NCBI GenBank assembly: GCA_024742935.1
Contig: JANSXN010000003.1
Span: 4,757-68,756 of the forward strand
Direction: 5' to 3'
Length of the DNA stretch: 64,000 bases
Source of the DNA: Flavobacteriaceae bacterium
Lineage (GTDB): Bacteria; Bacteroidota; Bacteroidia; Flavobacteriales; Flavobacteriaceae
Made by a program: the position numbers and the translations under genes. The notes under the pieces were generated by a model. That model ran no database searches, was not told the DNA's origin, and saw nothing but the letters and a program-made list of their open reading frames with translations. The number at the start of each line of letters is the position of its first letter. Within the stretch, counting starts at the first letter, position 1. This document shows, in pieces, positions 539 to 13,500 of the stretch.

Positions 539-1270
539 TTAAATGACATTTCTCCCTTTTTCATCCGGATATAAAGTCCAAACAGGGTCACTTTGCCAAA
601 ACTCCTTTGTGTCAACATCAAAAACAGTTACCGGTCCTTTAAAAGCCGCTCCGGTGTCGATATTCCAAACACTAAGCGCACGTTGAGGAGTGGTTTTACC
701 TATGCGCGTCACGGGAGTATGACCTATGTAGATTTCGTCAAATAATTTAAGCCTTTCCGGAAATTTCAGGTCGTCTTTTTTAAGGTTTGTATCAGTGGCC
801 AATGCCGTTTCCCATAAGGTCCTGTCCCAGTAAAAGGCTGTTTTATGATGTTCATATTGTGGCCCTTTTAGGTTTTGAAAACCGGCATGTGTAAAAAGAC
901 GATTTTTCTCATCGATGTAATAATCTTGGAGATTTTCAAAAAAATTTTTATGGCTTTCGATTTCGTGTCTGCTTAAATTGTCATAACTGTCAATAGAAGA
1001 TTGACCGCCTTGTTCAACCCATTGCAATGGCTTTTCATTGTTTGCAAGAAAATGATAGCACAAATCATCGTGATTGCCTCTAATAAAAATGCACTTGTTT
1101 TTTGCTGTCAACTCAATTAAAAATGAAACTGTCTCAGCGCTTTCGCTCCAGCCATCCACATAATCGCCTAAAAAAATCAAGGTGTCATCGGGGGTTATTT
1201 TTGCTCTGTTTATTGCTTGAACAACGCCTTTATACCCACCGTGAATATCTCCAATTACAAGTGTTCTCAT
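539..1270 (-). CDS. Calcineurin-like metallophosphoesterase (bacterial PPP/ApaH-like family)
   Basis: Motifs GDIHG, GDYVD, GNHD, HAG, GHTP, DTG. Confidence 0.9.
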   Translation of the reverse strand: MRTLVIGDIHGGYKGVVQAINRAKITPDDTLIFLGDYVDGWSESAETVSFLIELTAKNKCIFIRGNHDDLCYHFLANNEKPLQWVEQGGQSSIDSYDNLSRHEIESHKNFFENLQDYYIDEKNRLFTHAGFQNLKGPQYEHHKTAFYWDRTLWETALATDTNLKKDDLKFPERLKLFDEIYIGHTPVTRIGKTTPQRALSVWNIDTGAAFKGPVTVFDVDTKEFWQSDPVWTLYPDEKGRNVI

Positions 1271-1271
1271 T

Positions 1272-2408
1272 TTAATTATAATTTACCTTTCTCAATATAC
1301 GCATTGCTTCTTTATATGAATCATAAACGGTTTTATTGTACTCTTTAATATAAGGTTTTGCAAGTTCCAGTTTGTCTTTGGCTTCTTCAAAATTGTTGAG
1401 GTAGCAAAGCAAATAAGTGGCCGGTAAATTGGTTATGTCTTGTTCCTCACGTTTGCTAAGGGAACTATTTTTTTTCAACTTTTCCAGCAAGGCATTATTA
1501 CTGTTGTATATGTGATACAGTGTTTTTTTATTGAATTGGGGTGGTTCAAAAATAAGGTTGGTGTTGATGTTGTAAGAACCGTTTTCATTAAAATCTATAG
1601 TAAGTTCTTCAAGTGGGTAGTATTTGATTTCGTTGTGAAGTCCCAGTTTGACATATTCAACAATTTTAAAATGGTCTTCTGTAAAATCAATTGTAATTTC
1701 ATCGAGGGCTGAATAAAATAACCGTACTTGCTCATTTATCAACTCAATATCAACCCGTGAATAAAAAATGTTGCCTTTTACTTTTTTAGGAATCCCGGCC
1801 CAACAAACCACAAAAATTTCTTTAAAGACTTTGTAGTGCGCATCCAGATTATTATGCCGGATGTTCATAAAGTCCATCACGCCATCCAGAGTCAACTTGA
1901 TGTTATTCTTTGCATGATTCTCAATTTGAGCGACAATCTGAGAATTGACATCTTTAATTTCAATATCAAAAACTTTAGGCATTGAAATACTTCCATCTCT
2001 GAAAAAAACACTGCCTCCCCAGTATTTCCAAATGTTCTTTCTCAGGGAAGTAATTTTATTATTGGGTCTAATAGTCACCAAACCCACAACTTTTCCTTCG
2101 GCTAAATGTGGAAATGGGATGTTTTCATAAGATATTAAAGGTGCGTTATCCATATAAGCATTGACCAAGTTCTGAATCTTACTGTCATCAAAAAAATCAA
2201 CGCCCACAATTTCATTTGTACTGTCATCAACCCCAACTACGATGTATGAGTTATTTTTAGGATTGGAATTGCTAAGGGCGCAAATGTGTTTTAAAAACTT
2301 GGCCTTCCCTTCTTTATTGCTAAAATCAAACCGTAGCTTTTTATCATAAAAACTACACTCATCATTGTGAGCAAGTAAATTTTTGATAAGAAGTCGTTTG
2401 TTAATCAT
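1272..2408 (-). CDS. Schlafen/AlbA_2-domain protein with a C-terminal domain of unknown function (DUF5929-like)
   Basis: N-terminal E-x4-D-x-K (DECSFYDKK), then ICALSN, YIVVGVDD and FFRDGS, typical of AlbA_2. ATG at 2408 preferred over the TTG at 2414. Confidence 0.75.
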   Translation of the reverse strand: MINKRLLIKNLLAHNDECSFYDKKLRFDFSNKEGKAKFLKHICALSNSNPKNNSYIVVGVDDSTNEIVGVDFFDDSKIQNLVNAYMDNAPLISYENIPFPHLAEGKVVGLVTIRPNNKITSLRKNIWKYWGGSVFFRDGSISMPKVFDIEIKDVNSQIVAQIENHAKNNIKLTLDGVMDFMNIRHNNLDAHYKVFKEIFVVCWAGIPKKVKGNIFYSRVDIELINEQVRLFYSALDEITIDFTEDHFKIVEYVKLGLHNEIKYYPLEELTIDFNENGSYNINTNLIFEPPQFNKKTLYHIYNSNNALLEKLKKNSSLSKREEQDITNLPATYLLCYLNNFEEAKDKLELAKPYIKEYNKTVYDSYKEAMRILRKVNYN

Positions 2409-2414
2409 ATCCAA

Positions 2415-2434
2415 ATTCCTGCGTAGGCAGGAAT
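2415..2434. repeat. REP-like palindrome ATTCCTGC-GTAG-GCAGGAAT
   Basis: Perfect 8-bp inverted repeat with a 4-nt loop in the short SDR/AlbA spacer; resembles the ATTCCC-N8-GGGAAT (dRS3-type) pattern. Confidence 0.55.
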
Positions 2435-2440
2435 CCCATT

Positions 2441-3205
2441 TTAAATATCCTCTTTTTTGTTCACAATAGTACTAGTTGCCTGGTCGATACTCATCACTAC
2501 AAGGTCTGCTATATTGACATGTGCTGGGCGTGTGACTGTAAACCAAATTATTTCAGCGATATCCAAAGGTAAAAGTGGTTGATATCCCTGATAGACTTTA
2601 TCGGCGCGATTTTTATCTCCTTTAAAACGCACTTCACTAAACTCAGTTTTTACAAGACCCGGGTGGATGGCTCCCACTTTAATTGCGCTGCCATTAAGAT
2701 CAATGCGCAGTCCTTGATTTATGGCGTCAACGGCAGCTTTACTTGCACAATATACATTGCCTTTTGGATACACCTCCTTTGCAGCTGTTGACCCAATGTT
2801 AATAATATGCCCCGAGTTTTTTTCAAGCATACCGGGTAATACAGCTTTAGTGACATAAAGTAAGCCTTTAACATTAATGTCCATCATAGCTTCCCAATCG
2901 TCGAGATTTCCATCTTGAAAAGTATCCAGACCGTGGGCATTTCCTGCATTATTAATTAGGATGTCAATAGAGGAAAACAGTTCCGGAAGTGAGGAAAGAC
3001 TTTTGAAAACATCTTCTTTATTTCTCACATCAAAATTTAAAGTATGGACCCTTGTAAACTCCTCTAATTCAGCTTTCACGCTTTTTAACCTTTCCTGTCT
3101 TCTTCCGGAAAGAATAATATTGAAATTTTTTTTAGCAAATACTCGGGCTGTCTCAAGACCAATTCCTGAAGTGGCTCCCGTGATTAGAACTGTTTTTGTA
3201 TTCAT
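2441..3205 (-). CDS. SDR-family NAD(P)-dependent oxidoreductase (YdfG-like)
   Basis: TGATSGIG, NNAG and YCASK catalytic motifs. Confidence 0.92.
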   Translation of the reverse strand: MNTKTVLITGATSGIGLETARVFAKKNFNIILSGRRQERLKSVKAELEEFTRVHTLNFDVRNKEDVFKSLSSLPELFSSIDILINNAGNAHGLDTFQDGNLDDWEAMMDINVKGLLYVTKAVLPGMLEKNSGHIINIGSTAAKEVYPKGNVYCASKAAVDAINQGLRIDLNGSAIKVGAIHPGLVKTEFSEVRFKGDKNRADKVYQGYQPLLPLDIAEIIWFTVTRPAHVNIADLVVMSIDQATSTIVNKKEDI

Positions 3206-3256
3206 GTCTGTTTTTAGAAATTCTTTAAAATTAGCGCTTTTATGTTTTATATGGAA

Positions 3257-3294
3257 GTTAATTTTAAGTTAAGCGGAGCGTTAAGTAGTGTTAA
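3257..3294. promoter_or_regulatory. Four helically phased GTTAA direct repeats (possible regulator site)
   Basis: GTTAA at 3257, 3268, 3280 and 3290 (spacing 11, 12, 10) between divergent genes. Confidence 0.3.
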
Positions 3295-3361
3295 AATAAT
3301 AATTTTCGATTCTTTGAGGGGTTACCTGTACATAGAACAATTAACAAATAAAATAAAAATC

Positions 3362-4141
3362 ATGAAAAATTTAATTAAAATTAGTTTAGTATTTATTGCG
3401 CTTTTTGCATTTATCTCTTGTAGTGACGATGAATCTAACGATGATGGAACTTCCAGAATAAAGGTAAGTTTGACCGATGCTCCGGGTGATTATGAGCATG
3501 TATATGTTGATGTACAGGATGTTGTTGTAAAATACAGTGACATTGAAGGGGAGGTTTCACTGGGAAATATCAATGCCGGAATTTATGACTTACTTGAATT
3601 AACAGGCGGAATAAGTGTTTTGTTAGCAGATGAAGAAGTACCCTCAGGAAACATTTCTCAGATGAGACTTGTTTTAGGTTCTGAAAACTCTATTGTTATT
3701 GAAGGCGAGACTTACCCCCTTCAAACACCAAGTGCACAACAATCTGGATTAAAACTTACAATTAATCAAACTCTTGAAAATGGAATTTTATATGAGTTTG
3801 TGCTTGATTTTGATGTTGAAGAATCTATCGTTGTACAGGGTAATGGTGGTTATTTGCTCAAGCCAGTTATAAGAGCAAGTACCTTAGCAGAATCTGGTTC
3901 AATCTCTGGAACTGTGCTGCCATTGGGAATACAAGTATTAGTAACAGCTTCCAATGAAGTTAACACAATCTCTGCATATACCAATGCTGAAGGTAATTTT
4001 GTTCTTCACGGTGTGCCGGAAGGAACTTATACTGTTACAATTGAGCCCGAACTAGCCTCAGGATTTGAGATTATGATACTTGAAGATGTGGAAGTTGTCA
4101 ACGGACAAATAACCGCTTTGGGTAGCATAACGCTGCTTTAA
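3362..4141 (+). CDS. DUF4382-domain lipoprotein with C-terminal carboxypeptidase-regulatory-like domain
   Basis: Lipobox FISC followed by an acidic tract; LTDAPGDY, DLLELTGG, SAQQSGLKL, DFDVEES and LKPVIR motifs. Start moved to ATG 3362. Confidence 0.82.
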   Translation: MKNLIKISLVFIALFAFISCSDDESNDDGTSRIKVSLTDAPGDYEHVYVDVQDVVVKYSDIEGEVSLGNINAGIYDLLELTGGISVLLADEEVPSGNISQMRLVLGSENSIVIEGETYPLQTPSAQQSGLKLTINQTLENGILYEFVLDFDVEESIVVQGNGGYLLKPVIRASTLAESGSISGTVLPLGIQVLVTASNEVNTISAYTNAEGNFVLHGVPEGTYTVTIEPELASGFEIMILEDVEVVNGQITALGSITLL

Positions 4142-4168
4142 ATAACAGGAATTAAATAAATTATTCAT

Positions 4169-4204
4169 ACAGGTGGTGCTAAATAGCACTGCCTGTTATT
4201 TTTA
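4169..4204 (+). terminator. Intrinsic terminator after the DUF4382 gene
   Basis: ACAGGTGGTGCTA/TAGCACTGCCTGT stem followed by TATTTTT. Confidence 0.7.
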
Positions 4205-4281
4205 ACCAATTGTTAACAGCATAACTGCTCAGAATTTTTCAATTTGCATCCCCAATAATCCTTGCTAAAAAAACAGTAATT

Positions 4282-5286
4282 ATGGAAGAAATTAACGCAA
4301 CAATAGACATTGGAGCATTAAATGAAAAGATTGAAAAAGAAAGTGCATTTGTTGATATTCTCACCTTAGAAATGAATAAGGTAATCGTGGGTCAAAAACA
4401 CATGATCGAACGTCTTTTAATTGGTCTCTTAGGACAAGGCCACATTCTTCTCGAAGGAGTTCCCGGTCTTGCTAAAACTTTAGCCATAAACACTCTCTCA
4501 CAGGCGGTTCACGGTACTTTTAGCAGAATTCAATTTACGCCAGATTTACTACCGGCAGATGTTATTGGAACTTTGATTTACAATATGAAACTCAATGATT
4601 TCAGTATCAAAAAAGGTCCTATTTTTGCCAATTTTGTACTGGCAGATGAAATAAACCGTGCCCCTGCCAAAGTTCAATCAGCATTACTGGAAGCTATGCA
4701 GGAGAAGCAAGTAACTATTGGCGAAGAAACCTACACGCTTGACAAGCCTTTTTTAGTAATGGCAACAATGAATCCTATTGAACAGGAAGGAACATACCCA
4801 TTACCGGAAGCTCAGGTAGATCGTTTTATGTTAAAAACGGTTATCAAATACCCTCAATTAAACGAGGAACAACTCATCATTAGACAAAACCTAAAAGAAG
4901 GGTTTAGCAAAGTAAATCAAGTGGTTACTCTTGAACAAATTAAACGTGCTCAAGACGCTGCCAGAGAGGTCTACATGGATGAAAAAATTGAAAAATACAT
5001 TCTCGATATTATTTTTGCAACCCGAAACCCTGAAAAATTCAACCTCGCAGAAATCAAGCCCCTTATTCAATATGGAGCTTCTCCTCGTGGAAGTATTAAC
5101 CTGGCAATCGCTTCAAAATGTTATGCATTTATCAAACGAAGAGGTTATGTAATTCCAGAAGACGTACGTGCTGTTGTGCATGATGTGCTTCGCCACAGAA
5201 TAGGTATTACGTATGAAGCTGAAGCCGAAAACATCACCTCAGAAGATTTAATCAACAAAATCGTCAATCAAATAGAAGTACCTTAA
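4282..5286 (+). CDS. moxR: MoxR-family AAA+ ATPase (Bat cluster)
   Basis: Walker A GVPGLAKT, RIQFTPDLLPAD, Walker B LADEINRAP, and YPLPEAQVDRF. Confidence 0.95.
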   Translation: MEEINATIDIGALNEKIEKESAFVDILTLEMNKVIVGQKHMIERLLIGLLGQGHILLEGVPGLAKTLAINTLSQAVHGTFSRIQFTPDLLPADVIGTLIYNMKLNDFSIKKGPIFANFVLADEINRAPAKVQSALLEAMQEKQVTIGEETYTLDKPFLVMATMNPIEQEGTYPLPEAQVDRFMLKTVIKYPQLNEEQLIIRQNLKEGFSKVNQVVTLEQIKRAQDAAREVYMDEKIEKYILDIIFATRNPEKFNLAEIKPLIQYGASPRGSINLAIASKCYAFIKRRGYVIPEDVRAVVHDVLRHRIGITYEAEAENITSEDLINKIVNQIEVP

Positions 5287-5368
5287 TTAGTTATTAGTTA
5301 TGGGTTAATAGTGGTTAGTAAAAATTTAAACCCTAAAACTTTTATAGTTTAGAGCCTGAACTTAAAAC
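5287..5368. repeat. Degenerate 7-nt repeat array
   Basis: TTAGTTA TTAGTTA TGGGTTA ATAGTGG TTAGTAA directly after the stop, then C-rich TAAACCC TAAAACT ... CCTGAAC TTAAAAC before the next ATG. Confidence 0.6.
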
Positions 5369-5370
5369 AC

Positions 5371-6237
5371 ATGGATACGAAAGAACTTCTAAAAAAAGTC
5401 AGAAAGATTGAAATCAAAACCCGAAGGTTGAGTGACAACCTTTTTGGTGGTGAATATCACAGTGCTTTCAAGGGAAGAGGAATGACTTTTAGTGAAGTGA
5501 GGCAGTACCAATTTGGTGATGATGTGAGAAATATTGACTGGAATGTAACGGCGCGCTACAACGAGCCCTTTGTAAAAGTTTTTGAAGAAGAACGGGAATT
5601 GACATTGATGTTACTAGTTGACATTAGTGCCTCTGAAGTTTTTGGTTCCACACAGCAATTTAAAAATGAAATTATAACTGAAATAGCCGCGACATTAGCT
5701 TTCTCTGCATTACAAAACAATGACAAAATAGGTATAGCACTTTTTACAGATCAAATTGAATTATACATTCCACCAAAAAAAGGAAAGTCACACGTGTTAC
5801 GCATCATTAGAGAATTGATTGAGTTTAAACCCAAAAGCAAAAAAACCAATATCGAGCATGCCCTTCAATTTTTAGCAAATGTGCAGAAGAAAAAAGCCAT
5901 CGCTTTTGTGCTTTCAGATTTTATTACTGATGAAAATTATGAAAGCGCTCTGAAAATAGCAGCTAAAAAACACGACCTTACCGGTATACGCATTTATGAC
6001 CCGCGTGAGGAGCAAATACCAAACCTTGGAGTTATCCAAACACAGGATGGGGAAACGGGCGAGGCGCTGCTTGTAAACACAAGCTCAAAAAAAGTGAGAG
6101 CAGCTTATTCAAAATACTATATTGAAAAAGTAAGTTTTTTCCAGGAAACTTTTCAAAAAAGCGGAGCCGGAACAATGAATTGCAGAGTTGACGAAAGTTA
6201 TGTTAAAAAATTAATGGGATATTTTAAAAGACGATAG
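5371..6237 (+). CDS. DUF58 / vWA-domain protein (MoxR partner)
   Basis: GRGMTFSEVRQYQFGDDVRNIDWNVTAR, EEERE, and MIDAS-like DISAS. Confidence 0.92.
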   Translation: MDTKELLKKVRKIEIKTRRLSDNLFGGEYHSAFKGRGMTFSEVRQYQFGDDVRNIDWNVTARYNEPFVKVFEEERELTLMLLVDISASEVFGSTQQFKNEIITEIAATLAFSALQNNDKIGIALFTDQIELYIPPKKGKSHVLRIIRELIEFKPKSKKTNIEHALQFLANVQKKKAIAFVLSDFITDENYESALKIAAKKHDLTGIRIYDPREEQIPNLGVIQTQDGETGEALLVNTSSKKVRAAYSKYYIEKVSFFQETFQKSGAGTMNCRVDESYVKKLMGYFKRR

Positions 6238-6248
6238 CCGGCAGCTTA

Positions 6249-6290
6249 TAGATACTAGATATTAGACAAAAGATTTTAGATGTTAGACAA
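6249..6290. repeat. Degenerate 7-nt repeat array
   Basis: TAGATAC TAGATAT TAGACAA AAGATTT TAGATGT TAGACAA; overlaps the called ATG at 6280. Confidence 0.7.
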
Positions 6291-7920
6291 GATAAAAAAT
6301 AGAACCATTTTTTCCAATAAGCTTCTGCTGTTGGTGTTTCTTTTTGTCTTTAGTATTCTTTTCAGTTTTTCCGGTTTCTCCCAAATCAAGGCGACGATTG
6401 ACACAACTTCAATCAAAATAGGTGAAGAAATTACGTATCACATTGAAGTTTTGACAGATTCAAGCTCAGTCGTTCTCTTTCCTGAAGGGCAGAGCTTCTT
6501 CCCGCTTGAAGTAATTGAGTTTTACCCCACAGATACCACTTTCGAAAACGAAAAAACCAAACTCATCAAAAAATATGGCCTCACACAATTTGATTCAGGC
6601 AGGTATGTGATTCCGAGTCAACTTTTACGCATCAATGAAAAGGCTTTTTATACAGATTCCTTACTTGTAGAAGTAGCAGATGTTGAAGTGGACACTTTAA
6701 AGCAACCCATGTTTGATATCAAACCTGCTATAGAGGTGCCTACTGTCAAAACTGACTGGTTAAAATACATTCTTTGGGGATTGCTTATCATTGCAATTAT
6801 AGCAGCATTGATTTATTTTATATTGCGTCAAAAGAAAAAAATTGAAGAAGCAAAAAGACAATTACCCCCTTTTGAAGAAGCACTTGTTGCTCTAAAAACT
6901 TTAGACACTTCAGGTTATCTGAAAGAAAATAAAGTCAAAGACTACTACTCATCTCTCACAGAAATTGTAAAACGCTACCTAGACCGCGAAGTCGATGATG
7001 CTGCTCTTGAAAGCACGACTGATGAATTAATTTTAAAGCTGGAGCTTCATAAAGACTCCGGTCATCTGGACTTTGACAAAGCAACTATAAACAGGCTTAG
7101 AGAAATTTTAAAACGGGCTGATTTAATCAAATTTGCCAAAATGCAAATGGAATCGGGTCAGGCTCACCTGGACAGAACAGACATTGAAGAAATCATTAAA
7201 GAAACGCACGAATCCATACCCGAGCCCACCGAAGAAGAAAAACTAAAAGACGCTCTGTATCAAGAAGAGCTTCTGAAGAAAAAGAAAAAACAAAAGCGTC
7301 TCTACATTGCAGGAGGTATTGCCTCCGTAATCATCTTTGGTTTGGGTGTCTTGTCTTTGATATTTGGTGTAAATGAAGTGAAAGACAAGGTATTTGGAAA
7401 TTATACCAGATCCCTAGTTGAACAAACCTGGATAAAAAGTGAGTATGGAAGTCCGGCAGTCATACTTGAAACCCCTGAAGTTTTGGTCAGAAAAACAACT
7501 GATGACGAATTTGTTATTACCAAAAACCTGGATGATATTTTTACGTTTGGAGACATTCAAAAGAAACTCTATATCTATGTGGGAGCAGCTAAAACTCAAG
7601 ATACAACAGCTCAAAATTTGGGAAAATTGCTTGAGGAAAAAATGGTGCTTCTAGAGGAAGCCGGAGCAACAAACCTCATCGTTATGGATGAACCTTTTAC
7701 TACTGAAAAAGGAGTTACAGGAATCAAAGCTGCAGGTGAGTTTAATATCAATTTAGGTGAGAACAAATTTAAAAAAGCAAAAAGCGACTATGAACTTGTC
7801 ATTTTTTCTCAAAATGGAAGCATTCAGGAAATCCTGATAGTCACAGAAAAAGAAGATGTCTATGCGCAACAAATTAAAGAACGTATTTTAAAATCTGTTG
7901 AAATCGAAGTTTTAAAATGA
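6280..7920 (+). CDS. Bat-cluster membrane protein (BatD-like Ig domain, DUF4381-like segment, two TM helices)
   Basis: Signal peptide, IKIGEEI...QFDSGRYVIP beta-domain, TM helix, LKFAK-like motif (LIKFAK), second TM helix; lies between DUF58 and batA. Exact start uncertain. Confidence 0.7.
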   Translation: MLDKIKNRTIFSNKLLLLVFLFVFSILFSFSGFSQIKATIDTTSIKIGEEITYHIEVLTDSSSVVLFPEGQSFFPLEVIEFYPTDTTFENEKTKLIKKYGLTQFDSGRYVIPSQLLRINEKAFYTDSLLVEVADVEVDTLKQPMFDIKPAIEVPTVKTDWLKYILWGLLIIAIIAALIYFILRQKKKIEEAKRQLPPFEEALVALKTLDTSGYLKENKVKDYYSSLTEIVKRYLDREVDDAALESTTDELILKLELHKDSGHLDFDKATINRLREILKRADLIKFAKMQMESGQAHLDRTDIEEIIKETHESIPEPTEEEKLKDALYQEELLKKKKKQKRLYIAGGIASVIIFGLGVLSLIFGVNEVKDKVFGNYTRSLVEQTWIKSEYGSPAVILETPEVLVRKTTDDEFVITKNLDDIFTFGDIQKKLYIYVGAAKTQDTTAQNLGKLLEEKMVLLEEAGATNLIVMDEPFTTEKGVTGIKAAGEFNINLGENKFKKAKSDYELVIFSQNGSIQEILIVTEKEDVYAQQIKERILKSVEIEVLK

Positions 7921-8927
7921 TGAACCCATTGCAGTTTGAATTTGTAAATCCCGAGTTTTTCTGGCTGTTTTTAGCACTGCCGGTTGCAATCGCTTGGTTT
8001 TTATGGAAGCGCAAAGAGTTAACCGCTTCTTTAAAACTATCTTCTTTGAAGGGATTTAAAACATCATCAAATTGGTTGGCCAAACTGCGCCCTCTTCTTT
8101 TTGTTTTTCGTCTTATTGCATTATCGTTGTTTATCATTGCAATGGCAAGACCCCGTTATGTTGACACCACAACGAGGATTAAAACAACCGAAGGCATTGA
8201 TATTGTGATGGCGATGGATGTTTCCGGAAGTATGCTGGCACGCGATTTAAAACCAAATAGACTGGAAGCTCTTAAAAAAGTAGCCGCAAACTTTGTAATG
8301 GAACGACCCAATGACCGCATTGGAGTGGTAATTTATGCCGGTGAAAGCTACACCCAAGTACCATTAACAACAGACAAGGCTGTGGTAGTAAATGCTATCA
8401 ATAGTATTTCCTATGGAAACACCATTGAAGATGGAACAGCTATTGGCGAAGGTCTTGCCACGGCAGTAAACCGTCTCAAAGACAGTTCCTCAGAAAGCAA
8501 AGTGGTTATTTTACTCACAGATGGAGTAAATAACACGGGCTATATAGACCCCATGATTGCGACAGAACTTGCGCTAGCTTTTGATATAAAAGTTTACGGA
8601 ATAGGTCTAGGCACCACAGGCAATGCGATGGCTCCGGTTGCTATCAATCCAAATGGCAGCTTCAGGTATGCAAATATTCCGGTTGTAATTGATGAAGATT
8701 TATTAAAAGAAATATCCAAAGCAACAGGAGGAACGTATTTTAGAGCAACCAGCACCTCAAAACTTGAAGAAGTGTATGAAGAAATAAACAAACTTGAAAG
8801 AACAGAAATTGAAGAATTTCAATACACCAGTTTTGAAGAACTCTTTCGCATTTTTGTTCTATGGGGTAGCGCCTTTTTGCTAATTGAAATTCTATTAAGA
8901 TTTACTTTATTTAGAAGTTTTGTATAA
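7917..8927 (+). CDS. batA: vWA-domain protein BatA
   Basis: FxNPxxFWL BatA N-terminus, MIDAS DVSGSM, GTAIG, LLTDG. Confidence 0.92.
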   Translation: MMNPLQFEFVNPEFFWLFLALPVAIAWFLWKRKELTASLKLSSLKGFKTSSNWLAKLRPLLFVFRLIALSLFIIAMARPRYVDTTTRIKTTEGIDIVMAMDVSGSMLARDLKPNRLEALKKVAANFVMERPNDRIGVVIYAGESYTQVPLTTDKAVVVNAINSISYGNTIEDGTAIGEGLATAVNRLKDSSSESKVVILLTDGVNNTGYIDPMIATELALAFDIKVYGIGLGTTGNAMAPVAINPNGSFRYANIPVVIDEDLLKEISKATGGTYFRATSTSKLEEVYEEINKLERTEIEEFQYTSFEELFRIFVLWGSAFLLIEILLRFTLFRSFV

Positions 8928-9964
8928 TGTATCAATTTGAAGACACTACATATTTTATAGTACTTGCAGTCATACCGCTGTTAATAGTCGTGTATCTGAT
9001 TTTTACAGTATGGAAAAACCGCGCTCAAAAAAACTTTGCTCAGAGGGAAGCTCTCAATAGATTGAGCCCTTCCAAATCAACATTTAAAAGCATTTTAAAA
9101 CTCACTTTGGTTTGCCTTGCGTTCTTTTTATTGGTAATAGCACTTGTCAATCCAAGAATTGGCACCAAAACCGAAGAAATTAAACGGGAAGGTGTTGATG
9201 TAGTATTTGCTATTGATGTTTCCAAAAGTATGCTCGCAGAAGACATTGCTCCCAACAGGCTTGAAAAATCAAAACAAATCGTCAACCAGTTGCTCAATAA
9301 ACTGGGTGGTGACAGGGTGGGTATTATTGGATATGCCGGAAGTGCATTCCCCCAATTGCCCATCACAACAGATTATAATGCTGCACGAATGTTTTTAAGT
9401 GCAATGAATACAGAGATGGTTTCTTCTCAGGGCACAGCTATTGCAGAAGCCATTGAATTATCAAAAACCTATTTTGATCAGGAAAACCCCACCAGCAAAG
9501 TATTAATCATCATCTCTGACGGGGAAGATCATCAGGGAAATGCAACAACCATTTCTACTGAAGCTTCAAATCAAGGTATTAAAATAATCTCAATCGCAGT
9601 GGGAAAAACTTCAGGTGGTCCCATACCAATTAAAAGAAATGGCATTCTGCAGGAATATATGCGAGACAGCAATGGAGAGCGTGTCATCACCCGAATGGAA
9701 GAGGATGTACTCAGAGAAGTCGCTACAAAAACCGAGGGTCTGTTTCTCTATGGCGAAATCACTTCAGATGTTGTTGAGGAAGTCTCAAAATTCTTAAACA
9801 CATTAGATAAAGAAGCCTTTGATTCAGTTCAATTTTCTGAATTTAAAAATCAGTTTCAATGGTTTCTGGGCGTGGCGTTGCTACTTTTGTTTATTGATAT
9901 ATTTCTTTTAGAGAGAAAGACTTTCTGGCTAGAGAAGTTGAACCTTTTTAATGAAAAGAAATGA
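8927..9964 (+). CDS. batB: vWA-domain protein BatB
   Basis: MIDAS DVSKSM, QLPITTD, ISDGEDH; translationally coupled to batA. Confidence 0.9.
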   Translation: MYQFEDTTYFIVLAVIPLLIVVYLIFTVWKNRAQKNFAQREALNRLSPSKSTFKSILKLTLVCLAFFLLVIALVNPRIGTKTEEIKREGVDVVFAIDVSKSMLAEDIAPNRLEKSKQIVNQLLNKLGGDRVGIIGYAGSAFPQLPITTDYNAARMFLSAMNTEMVSSQGTAIAEAIELSKTYFDQENPTSKVLIIISDGEDHQGNATTISTEASNQGIKIISIAVGKTSGGPIPIKRNGILQEYMRDSNGERVITRMEEDVLREVATKTEGLFLYGEITSDVVEEVSKFLNTLDKEAFDSVQFSEFKNQFQWFLGVALLLLFIDIFLLERKTFWLEKLNLFNEKK

Positions 9965-10770
9965 TGAAAAAGCAAGTCCTTTATATAGCACTCTTGGTTT
10001 TCTCTTTTGCATTTTCACAAACAAAAGAGCAAGAGACTCTCGCTAAAGAAAATCAGGAGCTTTTATCTCAAGCTCAAAAAAACATTGAAAAAGGTGATTT
10101 TGCTTCCGCGGAAGCGAAATACAGAAAAGTAATTGGCCGTGACCCAAAAAACACCGAAGCCAAATATAACTTAGGAAACCTCTATTATAGTATGGGCAAA
10201 AGTAATGAAGCTCAAAAACGCTACATACAAGCAATTGAAACCGCCCAGTCAAAGTCTGAAAAACACAAGATTTACCACAACCTGGGAAATGTGTTTATGA
10301 ACGAAAAACAATACCGCCCGGCCGTTGAAGCTTATAAAAATGCGTTGCGAAACAACCCAACAGATGATGAAACGAGGTACAATTTAGCTTTAGCCAAAAA
10401 AATGCTGGAAGAACACGGTGATGACGGTGGAGGCGGTGATGATCAAAATGAGGAAAATCAAGACGAAAAACAAGAAGGCGATAACGAAGAAGAACAGGAC
10501 CAGGGTGATGAAGGAAATGAAAATGAAGACAAAGGTGATGAAGGAGATGATGATGAACAAGATGCTCCTGAAAAAGATGAGGAAGGTGAACCCAAAGAGC
10601 CTCAAGATGGTGAAGAAGATGGAACTCCTCAACCCAGAGAAGGAAAGCTTTCTCCCCAACAAATTCAAAGCTTGCTTGAAGCCATGAACAATGAAGAGAA
10701 AAAAGTTCAGGATAAAATAAATGCTGAAAAACAAAAAGGAGCCAAAGTAAAGCCTGAAAAAGACTGGTAA
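9961..10770 (+). CDS. batC: TPR protein BatC with an acidic low-complexity linker
   Basis: Signal peptide, TPRs (YNLGN, HNLGN, RYNLA), D/E/Q/G-rich tract, C-terminal KDW. Confidence 0.9.
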   Translation: MMKKQVLYIALLVFSFAFSQTKEQETLAKENQELLSQAQKNIEKGDFASAEAKYRKVIGRDPKNTEAKYNLGNLYYSMGKSNEAQKRYIQAIETAQSKSEKHKIYHNLGNVFMNEKQYRPAVEAYKNALRNNPTDDETRYNLALAKKMLEEHGDDGGGGDDQNEENQDEKQEGDNEEEQDQGDEGNENEDKGDEGDDDEQDAPEKDEEGEPKEPQDGEEDGTPQPREGKLSPQQIQSLLEAMNNEEKKVQDKINAEKQKGAKVKPEKDW

Positions 10771-10819
10771 ATAGAGTAGTAAGAATTGAGTATTAAGTAT
10801 TAAGAATAAAGTGTTTAGG
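10771..10819. repeat. Degenerate 7-nt repeat array
   Basis: ATAGAGT AGTAAGA ATTGAGT ATTAAGT ATTAAGA ATAAAGT GTTTAGG starting at the first base after the batC stop. Confidence 0.7.
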
Positions 10820-10978
10820 CTTTATAAAATCAATTAAAACCAATAAAATATTTCGCCATTAACTAATCTCCTTTTGTCTTAAAATGAGCTTTTTATGAAT
10901 TTTTTTAATTTTTTTAAGTAAAAATTAATATGATTGTATGAAATTGAGTTTTACATTCGCACTTGCTCATATTGTACA

Positions 10979-12754
10979 ATGAAAACAAGATTAATATTCA
11001 CAACACTGCTCTTTCTGCTTGCAAGCCCATTGTTTGCACAGGTAAGCTTTGTTGCTAAGGTAAGCAAAGAAAAACTAGGCGTAAATGAGCGTTTGCGTGT
11101 AGATTTTGAGATGAATCAGGATGGAGATAACTTTCAACCTCCTCAATTTACTGGATTCAAAGTGGTTGCAGGACCCAACCAATCGGTTAGCAATATGTGG
11201 ATTAATGGAAAGCGCACCTATTCTAAAACCTTTAGTTACTTTTTATCTCCCACAGCCAGAGGCACTTTTACCATAGGACAAGCATCCATTGAAATTGATG
11301 GCGAAATTTATAAAACGGTTCCCATTAATGTTGAAGTTGGCGCTGCAGTTGACACCCCAAAAGACGGTGACAATATAGACATTGCTTCTCAGGGTGACCT
11401 CCATCTGGTTGCTGAAATATCAAAAGCAAGCCCTTATCTCAACGAGGCAATCACTGTTGTTTACAAGCTTTACTTTTCTCCTGAAACATCTATTAGTGGT
11501 TACAGAGTGATAGACAATCCCACTTTTGCTGACTTCTGGAGTCAAAACATCGACAACAATCAAATCCAGGTACAGGAAGGCACTTATCAAGGAAAACCCT
11601 ATTTATATACCATTTTGAGGAACACCTTATTGTATCCTCAAAAAACAGGAAAAATTCAAATTGAACCTCTTTCGCTTGATGTACAGTTACAAGTGAGAAC
11701 AAACAGAAGAGATATTTTTGGGCGACCTTTTATGACCCGAACAAACAGAACGCTCTCTTCTGTAAATAGAACCATAGACGTCAAGCCTCTGCCACTTGAC
11801 GGCCAACCGGCAAATTTTTCTGGAGCTGTTGGCACATTTAATTTAGATGTAAAAACAAGCAAAACAAAACTTGATGCCAGAGAATCTCTGGAATTAACTG
11901 TTGAAATTTCAGGTACAGGAAACTTAAAGCTTTTCAGACCTCCTTCAATAACATCCCCAACTACTTTTGAAGTGTATGAGCCTGAGTTCATTGATCGTGT
12001 TACCACTACTCAATCAGGCATGAGAGGTTCTATTTCTGAGAACTATACCTTGGTCCCCCAGTTTCAGGGAGATTATACAATTGACCCTGTTATTTTCAGC
12101 TATTTTGATCCCACTTCAGGTAGCTATAAAACCATCACTTCCGGTGAACTCTTGATTGAGGTGGAACAAGGCCCTGTGGCAAGTACACCAGCTGCCGGTA
12201 CTGGTTCTCAAGCTGTATATAGACAACCAGTTGTCATGGCAAATGAGCAATTTAAGTATATCAAGTTAGATGCAAACCTTAAAGCAATTGACAGTCCGCG
12301 CTTTTTTAATTCTGTTGCGTTTTGGTCACTTTTTACCGGACCGTTGTTGCTTATCCCATTGTTTATTTTCATAGGAAGAAAACAAAAAAATCTTCAGGCA
12401 GATATCGCAGGACAACGACTCAAAAAAGCAAACAGACTGGCCAAAAAGTATCTTTCTGAAGCTAAGAAAAACAGAGGAAATCAAGCCCATTTCTATGATG
12501 CCCTTGAGCGTGCCTTGCACAACTATCTCAAAGCAAAATTATCGATAGAGACTTCAGATTTCTCCAAAGAACGCATTGAAGGAATTTTACTGGACAGACA
12601 AGTCTCTTCACAAGCAAGCTCAGATTTTATTGCATTACTAAAGAGCTGTGAGTATGCAAGATATACCCCAACTACAGAAGGAGCTATCCAGCTTGATTAT
12701 GATAAAGCTGCAGAGGTAATTTCTACTATTGATAAACAAATTAAAAAGGCATGA
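10979..12754 (+). CDS. batD: BatD family protein
   Basis: Signal peptide, repeated Ig-like BatD domains, GAVG motif, C-terminal TM helix and KCEYARY-like tail (SCEYARY). Start moved to ATG 10979. Confidence 0.9.
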   Translation: MKTRLIFTTLLFLLASPLFAQVSFVAKVSKEKLGVNERLRVDFEMNQDGDNFQPPQFTGFKVVAGPNQSVSNMWINGKRTYSKTFSYFLSPTARGTFTIGQASIEIDGEIYKTVPINVEVGAAVDTPKDGDNIDIASQGDLHLVAEISKASPYLNEAITVVYKLYFSPETSISGYRVIDNPTFADFWSQNIDNNQIQVQEGTYQGKPYLYTILRNTLLYPQKTGKIQIEPLSLDVQLQVRTNRRDIFGRPFMTRTNRTLSSVNRTIDVKPLPLDGQPANFSGAVGTFNLDVKTSKTKLDARESLELTVEISGTGNLKLFRPPSITSPTTFEVYEPEFIDRVTTTQSGMRGSISENYTLVPQFQGDYTIDPVIFSYFDPTSGSYKTITSGELLIEVEQGPVASTPAAGTGSQAVYRQPVVMANEQFKYIKLDANLKAIDSPRFFNSVAFWSLFTGPLLLIPLFIFIGRKQKNLQADIAGQRLKKANRLAKKYLSEAKKNRGNQAHFYDALERALHNYLKAKLSIETSDFSKERIEGILLDRQVSSQASSDFIALLKSCEYARYTPTTEGAIQLDYDKAAEVISTIDKQIKKA

Positions 12755-13500
12755 AAAAAATAATCTGTTTGTTGTTTATAGCAATGAGCCTCTTTGCCTT
12801 TTCGCAAAACGAGCAAAAGTTTGATCAGGGTAAAGTGCATTACAAAGAGTCCAATTATGAAGCGGCTATTTCCTCATGGGAGTCCATTTTAGAATCTGGT
12901 GAGCACTCTGCTGCCTTATATTTCAACTTAGGAAACGCTTACTATCGCATTGATCAAATTGCACCAAGCATTTATTATTATGAAAAAGCGTTGCAGCTTG
13001 CTCCCGGTGACTCTGAAATAAAAAACAATTTGGCGTTTGCTCAAAATCAAACGATTGATATTATTGAACCTTTGCCAAAAAATTTATTCAGTTCTTGGAT
13101 TGAGAGAACCACACAACTTTTTTCTTTTAACAATTGGGCAAAAACTGCTGTCGTATTTATAATTGGTTTTGTACTGTTGTTTTTGTTATACTACTTTTCA
13201 GTTGCTGCAATGAAAAAGCGTCTGTTCTTTATAAGTTCTTTTCTTTCTTTATTCCTTTCATTGGGCTGCGTATTTTTTGCCTTTAATAATTATGCTCAGG
13301 TCAATGACGCTAAAACTGCCATATTATTTGCATCGAGTTCGCAGGTGAGAAGTGAGCCTTTAGAGAGAGCAGATATCTCTTTTGTTATTCACGAAGGCAC
13401 CAAAGTAAAAATCATTTCTGAAGAAGAGGAGTGGGTGCGTATAAAACTTGCCGATGGTAAAGATGGATGGATGATTAAAACAGGTTTAAAACAATTATAA
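12751..13500 (+). CDS. batE: BatE (TPR, two TM helices, SH3b)
   Basis: LYFNLGNAYYR TPR and C-terminal IHEGTKV...DGKDGW SH3b. Confidence 0.9.
   Translation: MKKIICLLFIAMSLFAFSQNEQKFDQGKVHYKESNYEAAISSWESILESGEHSAALYFNLGNAYYRIDQIAPSIYYYEKALQLAPGDSEIKNNLAFAQNQTIDIIEPLPKNLFSSWIERTTQLFSFNNWAKTAVVFIIGFVLLFLLYYFSVAAMKKRLFFISSFLSLFLSLGCVFFAFNNYAQVNDAKTAILFASSSQVRSEPLERADISFVIHEGTKVKIISEEEEWVRIKLADGKDGWMIKTGLKQL

Follow-up and report, generated by a model that had tools for sequence, protein, structure and literature searches.

A conserved Schlafen/AlbA_2-DUF5929 gene of Flavobacteriaceae: a predicted endoribonuclease with a probable housekeeping role, and its metallophosphoesterase neighbour

The 64,000-nucleotide stretch of a Flavobacteriaceae bacterium genome analysed here (GenBank assembly GCA_024742935.1, contig JANSXN010000003.1, positions 4,757 to 68,756; hereafter the window, whose own numbering is used throughout) carries three head-to-tail genes, all on the minus strand, for a short-chain dehydrogenase (SDR), a protein with an AlbA_2/Schlafen domain (the nuclease) and a metallophosphoesterase (MPE) (Table 1). 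A previous sequence-only reading of this DNA had recognized the order SDR-AlbA-phosphoesterase, and the Pfam families of all three genes agree with it. It had also pointed to an E-x4-D-x-K motif within DECSFYDKK of the AlbA_2-like gene, which we locate at residues 16-24 (E17-x4-D22-x-K24), and to a nuclease stop codon 1 bp away from the phosphoesterase start. This too is correct: the nuclease gene opens with the ATG at 2408..2406, encoding an MINKR N-terminus found in all 43 aligned orthologues, and closes with the TAA at 1274..1272, and base 1271 is the sole spacer before the MPE ATG at 1270..1268. The second domain of the nuclease, DUF5929 (PF19351), had not been named; it is matched over its full length (profile positions 1-222 of 222, E 7.7e-107). 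The protein is a member of the pSlfn4 group of prokaryotic Schlafens (pSlfns), which has the same PF04326 plus PF19351 architecture and a similar length, and of whose 305 catalogued members at least 11 are Flavobacteriaceae orthologues, for example F. johnsoniae NC_009441.1_732 (Perez Taboada et al., Nat Microbiol 2026, PMC13056530). The evidence described below suggests that the nuclease is probably a vertically inherited, non-immune RNase.

Table 1. Positions of the genes, domains and other features of the nuclease locus in the window
Feature	Position	Strand	Basis
SDR gene, YdfG-like short-chain dehydrogenase	3205..2441	minus	Pfam adh_short, E 1.6e-53
Hairpin, 8-bp stem and 4-nt loop, between SDR stop and nuclease ATG	2415..2434	minus	RNA folding, relatives
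pSlfn4 gene (nuclease), 378 aa, AlbA_2/Schlafen + DUF5929	2408..1272, stop included	minus	Open reading frame (ORF), Pfam, AlphaFold2 model, orthologues
SLFN_AlbA_2 nuclease domain, aa 19-142 (structural domain about aa 2-168)	1983..2354	minus	Pfam PF04326
Predicted catalytic motif E17-x4-D22-x-K24 (ECSFYDKK)	2337..2360	minus	Orthologue alignment, CbCash alignment
D62, predicted third acidic active-site residue (GVDD)	2223..2225	minus	Orthologue alignment
DUF5929 (PF19351), aa 157-378, presumed regulatory or substrate-selecting module	1275..1940	minus	Pfam, AlphaFold2 model
MPE gene, 243 aa, PPP / lambda-phosphatase / ApaH-PrpE type	1270..539	minus	Pfam Metallophos, E 4.2e-17
MoxR-type AAA ATPase gene, first gene of the divergent Bat (aerotolerance) operon	4282..5286	plus	Pfam AAA_3, E 2.3e-64

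The N-terminal domain matches PF04326 at E 3.2e-13 and 50.7 bits, against a gathering cut-off of 25.3, and NCBIfam holds no family for the protein. Among the 43 aligned orthologues, which are 54-74% identical, residues E17, D22, K23, K24 and D62 are invariant. A more divergent alignment, composed of the window protein and 19 full-length representatives of 50%-identity clusters (n=20), keeps E17 and K24 in at least 90% of the sequences, has either D or E at position 22, and has D at position 62 except for three sequences with N. The motif fits the Ex4(E/D)xK consensus described for prokaryotic Schlafens (PMC13056530). Searched alone with phmmer, the nuclease has no match among PDB sequences at E<=10, and the sequence matches to CbCash and the SLFN proteins were obtained with the family profile only. 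This profile of the divergent family reaches CbCash, a CRISPR-associated Schlafen tRNase (9ylu; PMC13462974), at E 3.1e-6 over aa 17-152, with the E-x4-D-x-K motif aligned residue for residue and the G-[VI]-x-D segment aligned as well; in SLFN11 and SLFN13 the counterpart of this segment is GVDD. The invariance of the motif in 43/43 orthologues together with its alignment to that of CbCash indicates that E-x4-D-x-K is more than a chance occurrence. The original assignment of a Schlafen/AlbA_2-type nuclease domain with an intact motif is thus borne out by Pfam, by the invariant residues and by the CbCash alignment.

A comparison of the fold with the SLFN nuclease core had also been proposed, and an AlphaFold2 model of the nuclease, built from the 43 orthologues (mean pLDDT 86), superposes on that core by two methods. 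The top Foldseek matches of the predicted model in the PDB, all at E 3e-5 to 8e-4, include the DNA-binding/tRNase domain of SAMD9 (7ksp, E 3.4e-5; 9o0d, E 4.7e-5), the bacterial AlbA_2 protein DIP2311 (3lmm), SLFN13 (5yd0, E 2.6e-4) and SLFN11 (7fex, E 8.1e-4). VIA, which is independent of Foldseek, returns Z scores for aa 2-168 of 10.3 with 2kyy, 9.8 with 3lmm and 9.3 with 7ksp (rmsd 4.0, 151 aligned), and places this domain on residues 187-348 of the pig SLFN11 chain (7fex, Z 7.8), which lie inside the catalytic-motif-bearing part of the SLFN nuclease domain. As judged from the predicted model, therefore, the nuclease is a prokaryotic Schlafen with an SLFN/SAMD9-like nuclease fold. Compared across mammalian SLFN11, SLFN12, SLFN13, SLFN14 and SAMD9, the fold is the same (Foldseek E 3e-5 to 1e-3; VIA Z 7.0-9.3), as is the acidic motif, at sequence identities of 9-21%. 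The mammalian Schlafens have two AlbA_2-like lobes per chain together with linker, helicase or other domains, whereas the nuclease has a single lobe, so that oligomerization would be needed to form an SLFN-like RNA clamp.

We infer from the conserved motif that the nuclease is an active, divalent-metal-dependent endoribonuclease, and by analogy with other Schlafens the predicted substrates are most likely structured RNAs such as tRNA or rRNA. It is also conceivable that the AlbA_2 domain is a nucleic-acid binder or regulator with no nuclease activity, given that the AlbA_2 domain of SAMD9 was crystallized with DNA (7ksp), that the automatic cluster names of some nuclease relatives read 'DNA-binding protein', and that some mammalian Schlafens are reported to lack catalytic residues (PMC13462974). 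This seems to us improbable, in that E17, D22, K24 and D62 are retained without exception in the 43 orthologues and fit the catalytic consensus, and in that Pfam searches found no helix-turn-helix or other DNA-binding domain in the protein.

DUF5929 is predicted to fold into two helices, a beta-meander of eight strands (aa 189-285) and a repeat of six helices (aa 294-377). When the beta domain was modelled alone (pLDDT 87) it gave no Foldseek match at E<=1e-3, and its best VIA Z was 6.5, with propeller-blade-like rows. The helical part (aa 292-378) gave generic helical-repeat matches only, with VIA Z<=8.4, and a search of the ESM Atlas with aa 150-378 yielded nothing informative, the best scores (0.90) being to unnamed clusters and to DUF5929 clusters. 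The modelled DUF5929 can be assigned to no known fold by Foldseek or VIA, which does not in itself make the fold a novel one, and no enzymatic fold is recognizable in the model. CbCash, the best profile match among solved structures, resembles the nuclease in its single AlbA_2 domain followed by a C-terminal regulatory domain, as DUF5929 is presumed to be, but it differs in carrying the cA4 sensor Csx15 and belonging to a type III CRISPR context, where the nuclease has DUF5929 and a housekeeping context (PMC13462974). Activation through filaments is reported for Cash alone (PMC13462974).

The nuclease gene has the distribution of a core gene of one bacterial family. In a sample of 201 Flavobacteriaceae genomes, one per genus and 170 of them of high quality, DUF5929 is present in 173 (155 of the 170), with a single match in all genomes but one; in the window's genome it occurs once, in the only AlbA_2 gene. 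Across the phylum, in a sample of 401 genomes of at least 90% completeness, DUF5929 is above the cut-off in 28/28 Flavobacteriaceae as against 0/372 other genomes, with two matches below the cut-off outside the family. A search of 1.84 billion cluster representatives produced 1,081 matches at E<=1e-3; of the best 150 of these, 19 are full length (351-396 aa) and 131 are shorter and cover the profile partly. The named relatives are all Flavobacteriaceae, with identities of 96% and 84% in Planktosalinus, 71-75% in Aequorivita and about 60% in Flavobacterium. No relative of the nuclease was found among the IMG/VR viral contigs, PLSDB plasmids or INPHARED phages.

The chromosomal position of the gene is similarly stable. 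We examined 40 genus-level loci, these being the first 40 with a listed DUF5929 match, a choice that leaves aside more divergent matches; the loci are mutually related, and the counts are descriptive rather than independent trials. In 39/40 of them the genes for MoxR and DUF58 are less than 7 kb from that of the nuclease, and an SDR gene, the best-conserved same-strand neighbour, is upstream on the same strand in 32/40, at a distance of 150 bp or less in 23. Across pairs of loci, nuclease identity correlates with MoxR identity (r 0.77, a value reached in 0/999 permutations) and with DUF58 identity (r 0.85), to be compared with r 0.75 between MoxR and DUF58 themselves. Mean pairwise identity is 71% for the nuclease; in same-loci comparisons it is 72% for SDR versus 71% for the nuclease, and 60% for MPE versus 72% for the nuclease. 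Single copy number, family-wide presence, synteny and congruent divergence together argue for a vertically inherited gene under purifying selection, and its retention by nearly all Flavobacteriaceae at one chromosomal spot suggests a cellular RNA role and not phage defence. This is not the horizontal, patchy and mobile distribution by which defence systems are recognized.

There are nevertheless reasons to consider that pSlfn4 is a phage-defence effector, in which DUF5929 would sense a phage cue and free a tRNase that halts translation, the gene having become fixed and immobile in the Flavobacteriaceae. Fused-domain architectures are typical of sensor-effector defence proteins, and DUF5929 does not look like an enzyme. 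A PADLOC model, PDC-S50, matches the nuclease at E 1e-9, albeit weakly and partially (aa 7-90 with positions 8-87 of a 387-position profile), the aligned part being the N-terminus common to Schlafens. The gene is also not universal, since it was not found in 28/201 family genomes and must be dispensable in some lineages. Every prokaryotic Schlafen tested so far is reported to be an immune effector, with RorSlfn5 and EcoSlfn7 (PMC13056530) and CbCash (PMC13462974) being antiviral, and 97.1% of pSlfns carry a fused, putative sensor domain (PMC13056530). The pSlfn4 group (pSlfn.DUF5929), which makes up 305 of 5,930 pSlfns (5.1%) and is the fourth commonest architecture, is catalogued there with no member tested and has a defence score of 0.85 (Supplementary Table 2, PMC13056530). 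All of these observations weigh against a housekeeping interpretation.

The score is the fraction of a group's proteins that have one or more DefenseFinder HMM matches (i-E<0.001) within 10 kb on either side (PMC13056530). We examined the Supplementary Table 1 rows of 11 of the 305 pSlfn4 members (PMC13056530): Dodola__DolB is listed in ten and is the sole match in nine, the eleventh row has a type II methyltransferase alone, and no DolA-like partner, which the Dodola system requires besides DolB, is reported in these 11 rows. In the window the PADLOC DolB model matches MoxR of the Bat operon at E 9.4e-5 and just 19.8 bits, while Pfam AAA_3 matches the same protein at E 2.3e-64. Given that DolB appears in most of the rows seen, that its match to MoxR is weak, and that MoxR is present at 39/40 genus loci, the 0.85 score probably reflects a conserved housekeeping neighbour, MoxR, that crosses a lenient threshold, as far as 11 of 305 rows can represent the group. 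Thus a group that was counted and scored in the catalogue (PMC13056530) appears here as a family-wide, syntenic and single-copy gene.

The surroundings of the gene do not resemble a defence island. None of 15 neighbouring proteins (from flanks of about 5 kb and 11 kb) matches a PADLOC model at E<=1e-5, the lenient matches being that of MoxR to DolB and two others at E>1e-3, and the Pfam families of the neighbours are metabolic, secreted or Bat-operon ones, in keeping with the earlier remark that mobile and defence genes are absent nearby. RorSlfn5 and EcoSlfn7 share the pSlfn module with Ex4(E/D)xK, but they have Ig-like or DUF262 partners, were picked because many defence genes surround them, and confer protection from T5 or T7 (PMC13056530); the nuclease has no defence neighbours and is distributed as a core gene. 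With its near-universal single-copy presence in one family, its housekeeping synteny, its divergence in step with its neighbours and its absence from the phage, plasmid and viral-contig collections searched, we consider a defence function rather unlikely. The view that a housekeeping RNA role is at least as likely as defence, already expressed in the sequence-only reading, is strengthened by the core-gene distribution and the synteny.

The adjacent MPE scores 63.7 bits with Pfam Metallophos (cut-off 21.5), and among PDB structures it matches lambda phosphatase (1g5b) over its full length at E 3.4e-7 and the phosphatase of CthPnkp (4j6o) at E 3.1e-6. It contains the motifs GDxHG, GDxxD, GNH[D/E], H, GH and xIDTG, and residues D8, H10, D36, D39, N66, H67, H128, H184 and D205 are invariant in 23/23 orthologues; of these D8, H10, D36, N66, H67, H128 and H184 are the predicted metal ligands, and the enzyme looks catalytically competent on this basis. 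PPP-type phosphatases usually carry a GDxVDRG motif whose arginine binds phosphate. In its place the MPE has GDYVDGWS, which lacks the arginine and is invariant in the same 23/23 orthologues, marking a variant subfamily. Its closest NCBIfam models are PrpE (E 6.7e-13, 48.7 bits, cut-off 340), the ApaH type (E 4e-11, 42.7 bits, cut-off 176), the PrpA type (E 5.7e-11, 42.8 bits, cut-off 326) and the Pnkp phosphatase domain (E 5.6e-11, 41.4 bits, cut-off 750), so that no equivalog cut-off is reached and Pnkp is no nearer than PrpE, ApaH or PrpA. Compared with lambda phosphatase, PrpA/PrpB, PrpE, ApaH and the Pnkp phosphatase the MPE shares the metal motifs, with about equally weak matches that are all far under the family cut-offs, and it differs in GDYVDGWS; to judge by these motifs it is an undescribed PPP-type subfamily. 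Orthologues are present in 130/201 family genomes and sporadically in other Bacteroidota families.

The close spacing of the two genes had led to the proposal that they form a cut-and-heal pair, in which the MPE processes the RNA ends made by the nuclease, or acts as an antidote that neutralizes the nuclease or its signal. Besides the 1-nt spacing, this idea can draw on the co-occurrence of the two genes in 124/201 genomes, and on the weak likeness of the MPE to the Pnkp phosphatase domain with its predicted metal ligands in place. The MPE gene also lies within 150 bp at 6 of the 40 genus loci and at 33 of the 80 loci closest to that of the window (many of them from Flavobacterium and not independent), and further downstream on the same strand at 12 of the former (1,052-5,906 bp) and 19 of the latter; it was not found at 22 (one with a short flank) and 28 (eight with short flanks) respectively, where not found means not within about 7 kb. 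A downstream, same-strand MPE within 7 kb in 18/40 genera is linkage above random, which tells against complete independence of the two genes.

A partner that heals or neutralizes would be expected to accompany its nuclease, however, and the MPE does not. With an orthologue criterion of E<=1e-30, the 201 genomes divide into 124 with both genes, 49 with the nuclease and no MPE orthologue, six with the MPE in which the nuclease was not found, and 22 in which neither was found; that is, 49/173 nuclease genomes have no MPE orthologue and 6/28 nuclease-negative genomes have one. The 22 genus loci without a nearby MPE comprise three with the gene 8-11 kb downstream, one with it at 40 kb, nine with it elsewhere and nine with no orthologue, so that in 13 of them it is at least 8 kb off or on another contig. 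Separated pairs have unrelated genes between them, some of which are on the opposite strand. The MPE profile finds orthologues in eight genomes of other families with no detected DUF5929, five of them at E<=1e-105, and within the family, in the same-loci comparison, the MPE shows lower conservation than the nuclease. The sequence-only reading had itself named lack of co-conservation in other genomes as grounds for giving up the pair, and across genera and genomes co-conservation largely breaks down.

Of other RNA-repair components, neither of the two sought was detected in the window's genome. The MPE is a phosphatase domain only, without the kinase or ligase-like domains of Pnkp; no full Pnkp was found, the genome's only TIGR04075 match being this MPE at 38 bits. 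RtcB (PF01139) has no match in the window's genome, which is 99.4% complete, by a search that was positive in 10/14 reference genomes and that covered RtcB and not Hen1 or other ligase families. A prediction of a complex between nuclease and MPE scored 0.00 against a mark of 0.32, which counts neither for nor against binding. We conclude that a nuclease-MPE cut-and-heal system is not supported, a functional pair of any kind being highly improbable, and that the MPE is an ordinary neighbour. The 1-nt spacing is a trait of the Planktosalinus-like clade, where tblastn gaps are 3-11 nt with the stop codon included, and would be one clade's state in a decaying ancestral gene order.

Our preferred interpretation, which we hold to be moderately probable, is that pSlfn4 acts as a metal-dependent endoribonuclease whose cellular role is conserved, gated or given its selectivity by DUF5929, and that the MPE is independent of it. 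The nuclease would cut structured RNA, for example tRNA or rRNA, in a divalent-metal-dependent manner, and DUF5929 would gate this activity or pick the substrate. Its role would then be in RNA processing, turnover or stress-triggered translational control, and not in phage defence, while the MPE would act as an independent PPP-type phosphoesterase and be no half of a cut-and-heal or toxin-antidote module.

The NCBIfam YdfG model matches the SDR at E 6.4e-79, which is under the model's cut-off. A scan for sigma-70-type promoters and terminators gave counts at the level of shuffled sequence and placed neither element between the SDR, nuclease and MPE genes, and neither Rfam (E<=1) nor a tRNA search turned up anything of relevance in the surrounding region. 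The sequencing data listed as containing this DNA are DNA metagenome contigs, with no RNA run among them. The Bacteroidetes-type -7 promoter motif TANNTTTG has 97 matches against 87 expected, none of them convincingly positioned; the nearest on the minus strand falls within the SDR gene (2564-2571). The 32-nt gap between the SDR and nuclease genes holds a hairpin that ends 6 nt upstream of the nuclease ATG and has a minimum free energy as RNA of -13.7 kcal/mol (z -2.98). It is retained in seven close relatives, with compensatory or expanded stems, and is not retained in more distant genera, whose SDR-nuclease gaps are shorter. The hairpin may lower or tune translation of the nuclease gene, or read-through into it.

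Several further features of the neighbourhood can be noted. The plus-strand region 3242-13500, divergent from the SDR-nuclease unit, holds a DUF4382 lipoprotein gene and behind it a complete Bat/aerotolerance-type operon, which encodes MoxR, DUF58, an unnamed 546-aa protein, two BatA/VWA proteins, a TPR protein, BatD and a TPR-SH3 protein. This arrangement of the Bat operon and the SDR-nuclease unit in 39/40 genera is synteny of a stability uncommon in this family, possibly a sign of joint regulation. Downstream of the MPE gene are genes for a DUF3575-like outer-membrane protein, a protein with a type IX secretion system sorting tail, an aldehyde dehydrogenase, a 3-hydroxyanthranilate dioxygenase and a CAP-domain protein. 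The first of these, at 1-489 on the minus strand, encodes a small, beta-barrel-like outer-membrane protein with a signal peptide and a weak DUF3575 match; it and the MPE are conserved together in the close clade and at some Flavobacterium loci (43-47% identity). In several genera (loci L085, L092, L104, L105, L110, L112 and L121) a conserved same-strand insert of two genes stands between the nuclease and MPE genes, one encoding a protein of about 379 aa that starts MGIFD and the other a protein of about 360-376 aa with CxxC...CxxC zinc-ribbon motifs. From their N-termini and ORF lengths we take the same-strand intervening genes to encode an SPFH-like protein and a zinc-ribbon protein, and those on the opposite strand to encode a PfkB-type kinase and large enzymes.

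In summary, recent work portrays bacterial Schlafens as immune effectors, and pSlfn4 behaves as a housekeeping gene of one bacterial family. It provides a concrete and testable candidate for the 'non-immune' Schlafens whose existence the authors of the catalogue suspected (PMC13056530), and it illustrates the caution that lenient scoring of defence genes in a neighbourhood misleads where synteny is conserved. We suggest tentatively, and with rather less confidence than we place in the ribonuclease interpretation, that pSlfn4 may be the first Schlafen of bacteria to serve a core function outside immunity, a lineage-specific endoribonuclease that vertical inheritance has maintained in the Flavobacteriaceae for the processing of RNA or the stress-triggered control of translation. 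If this is true, DUF5929 would represent a novel type of module for regulation or substrate recognition, and the Schlafen tRNase fold would serve ordinary bacterial physiology and not immunity alone.

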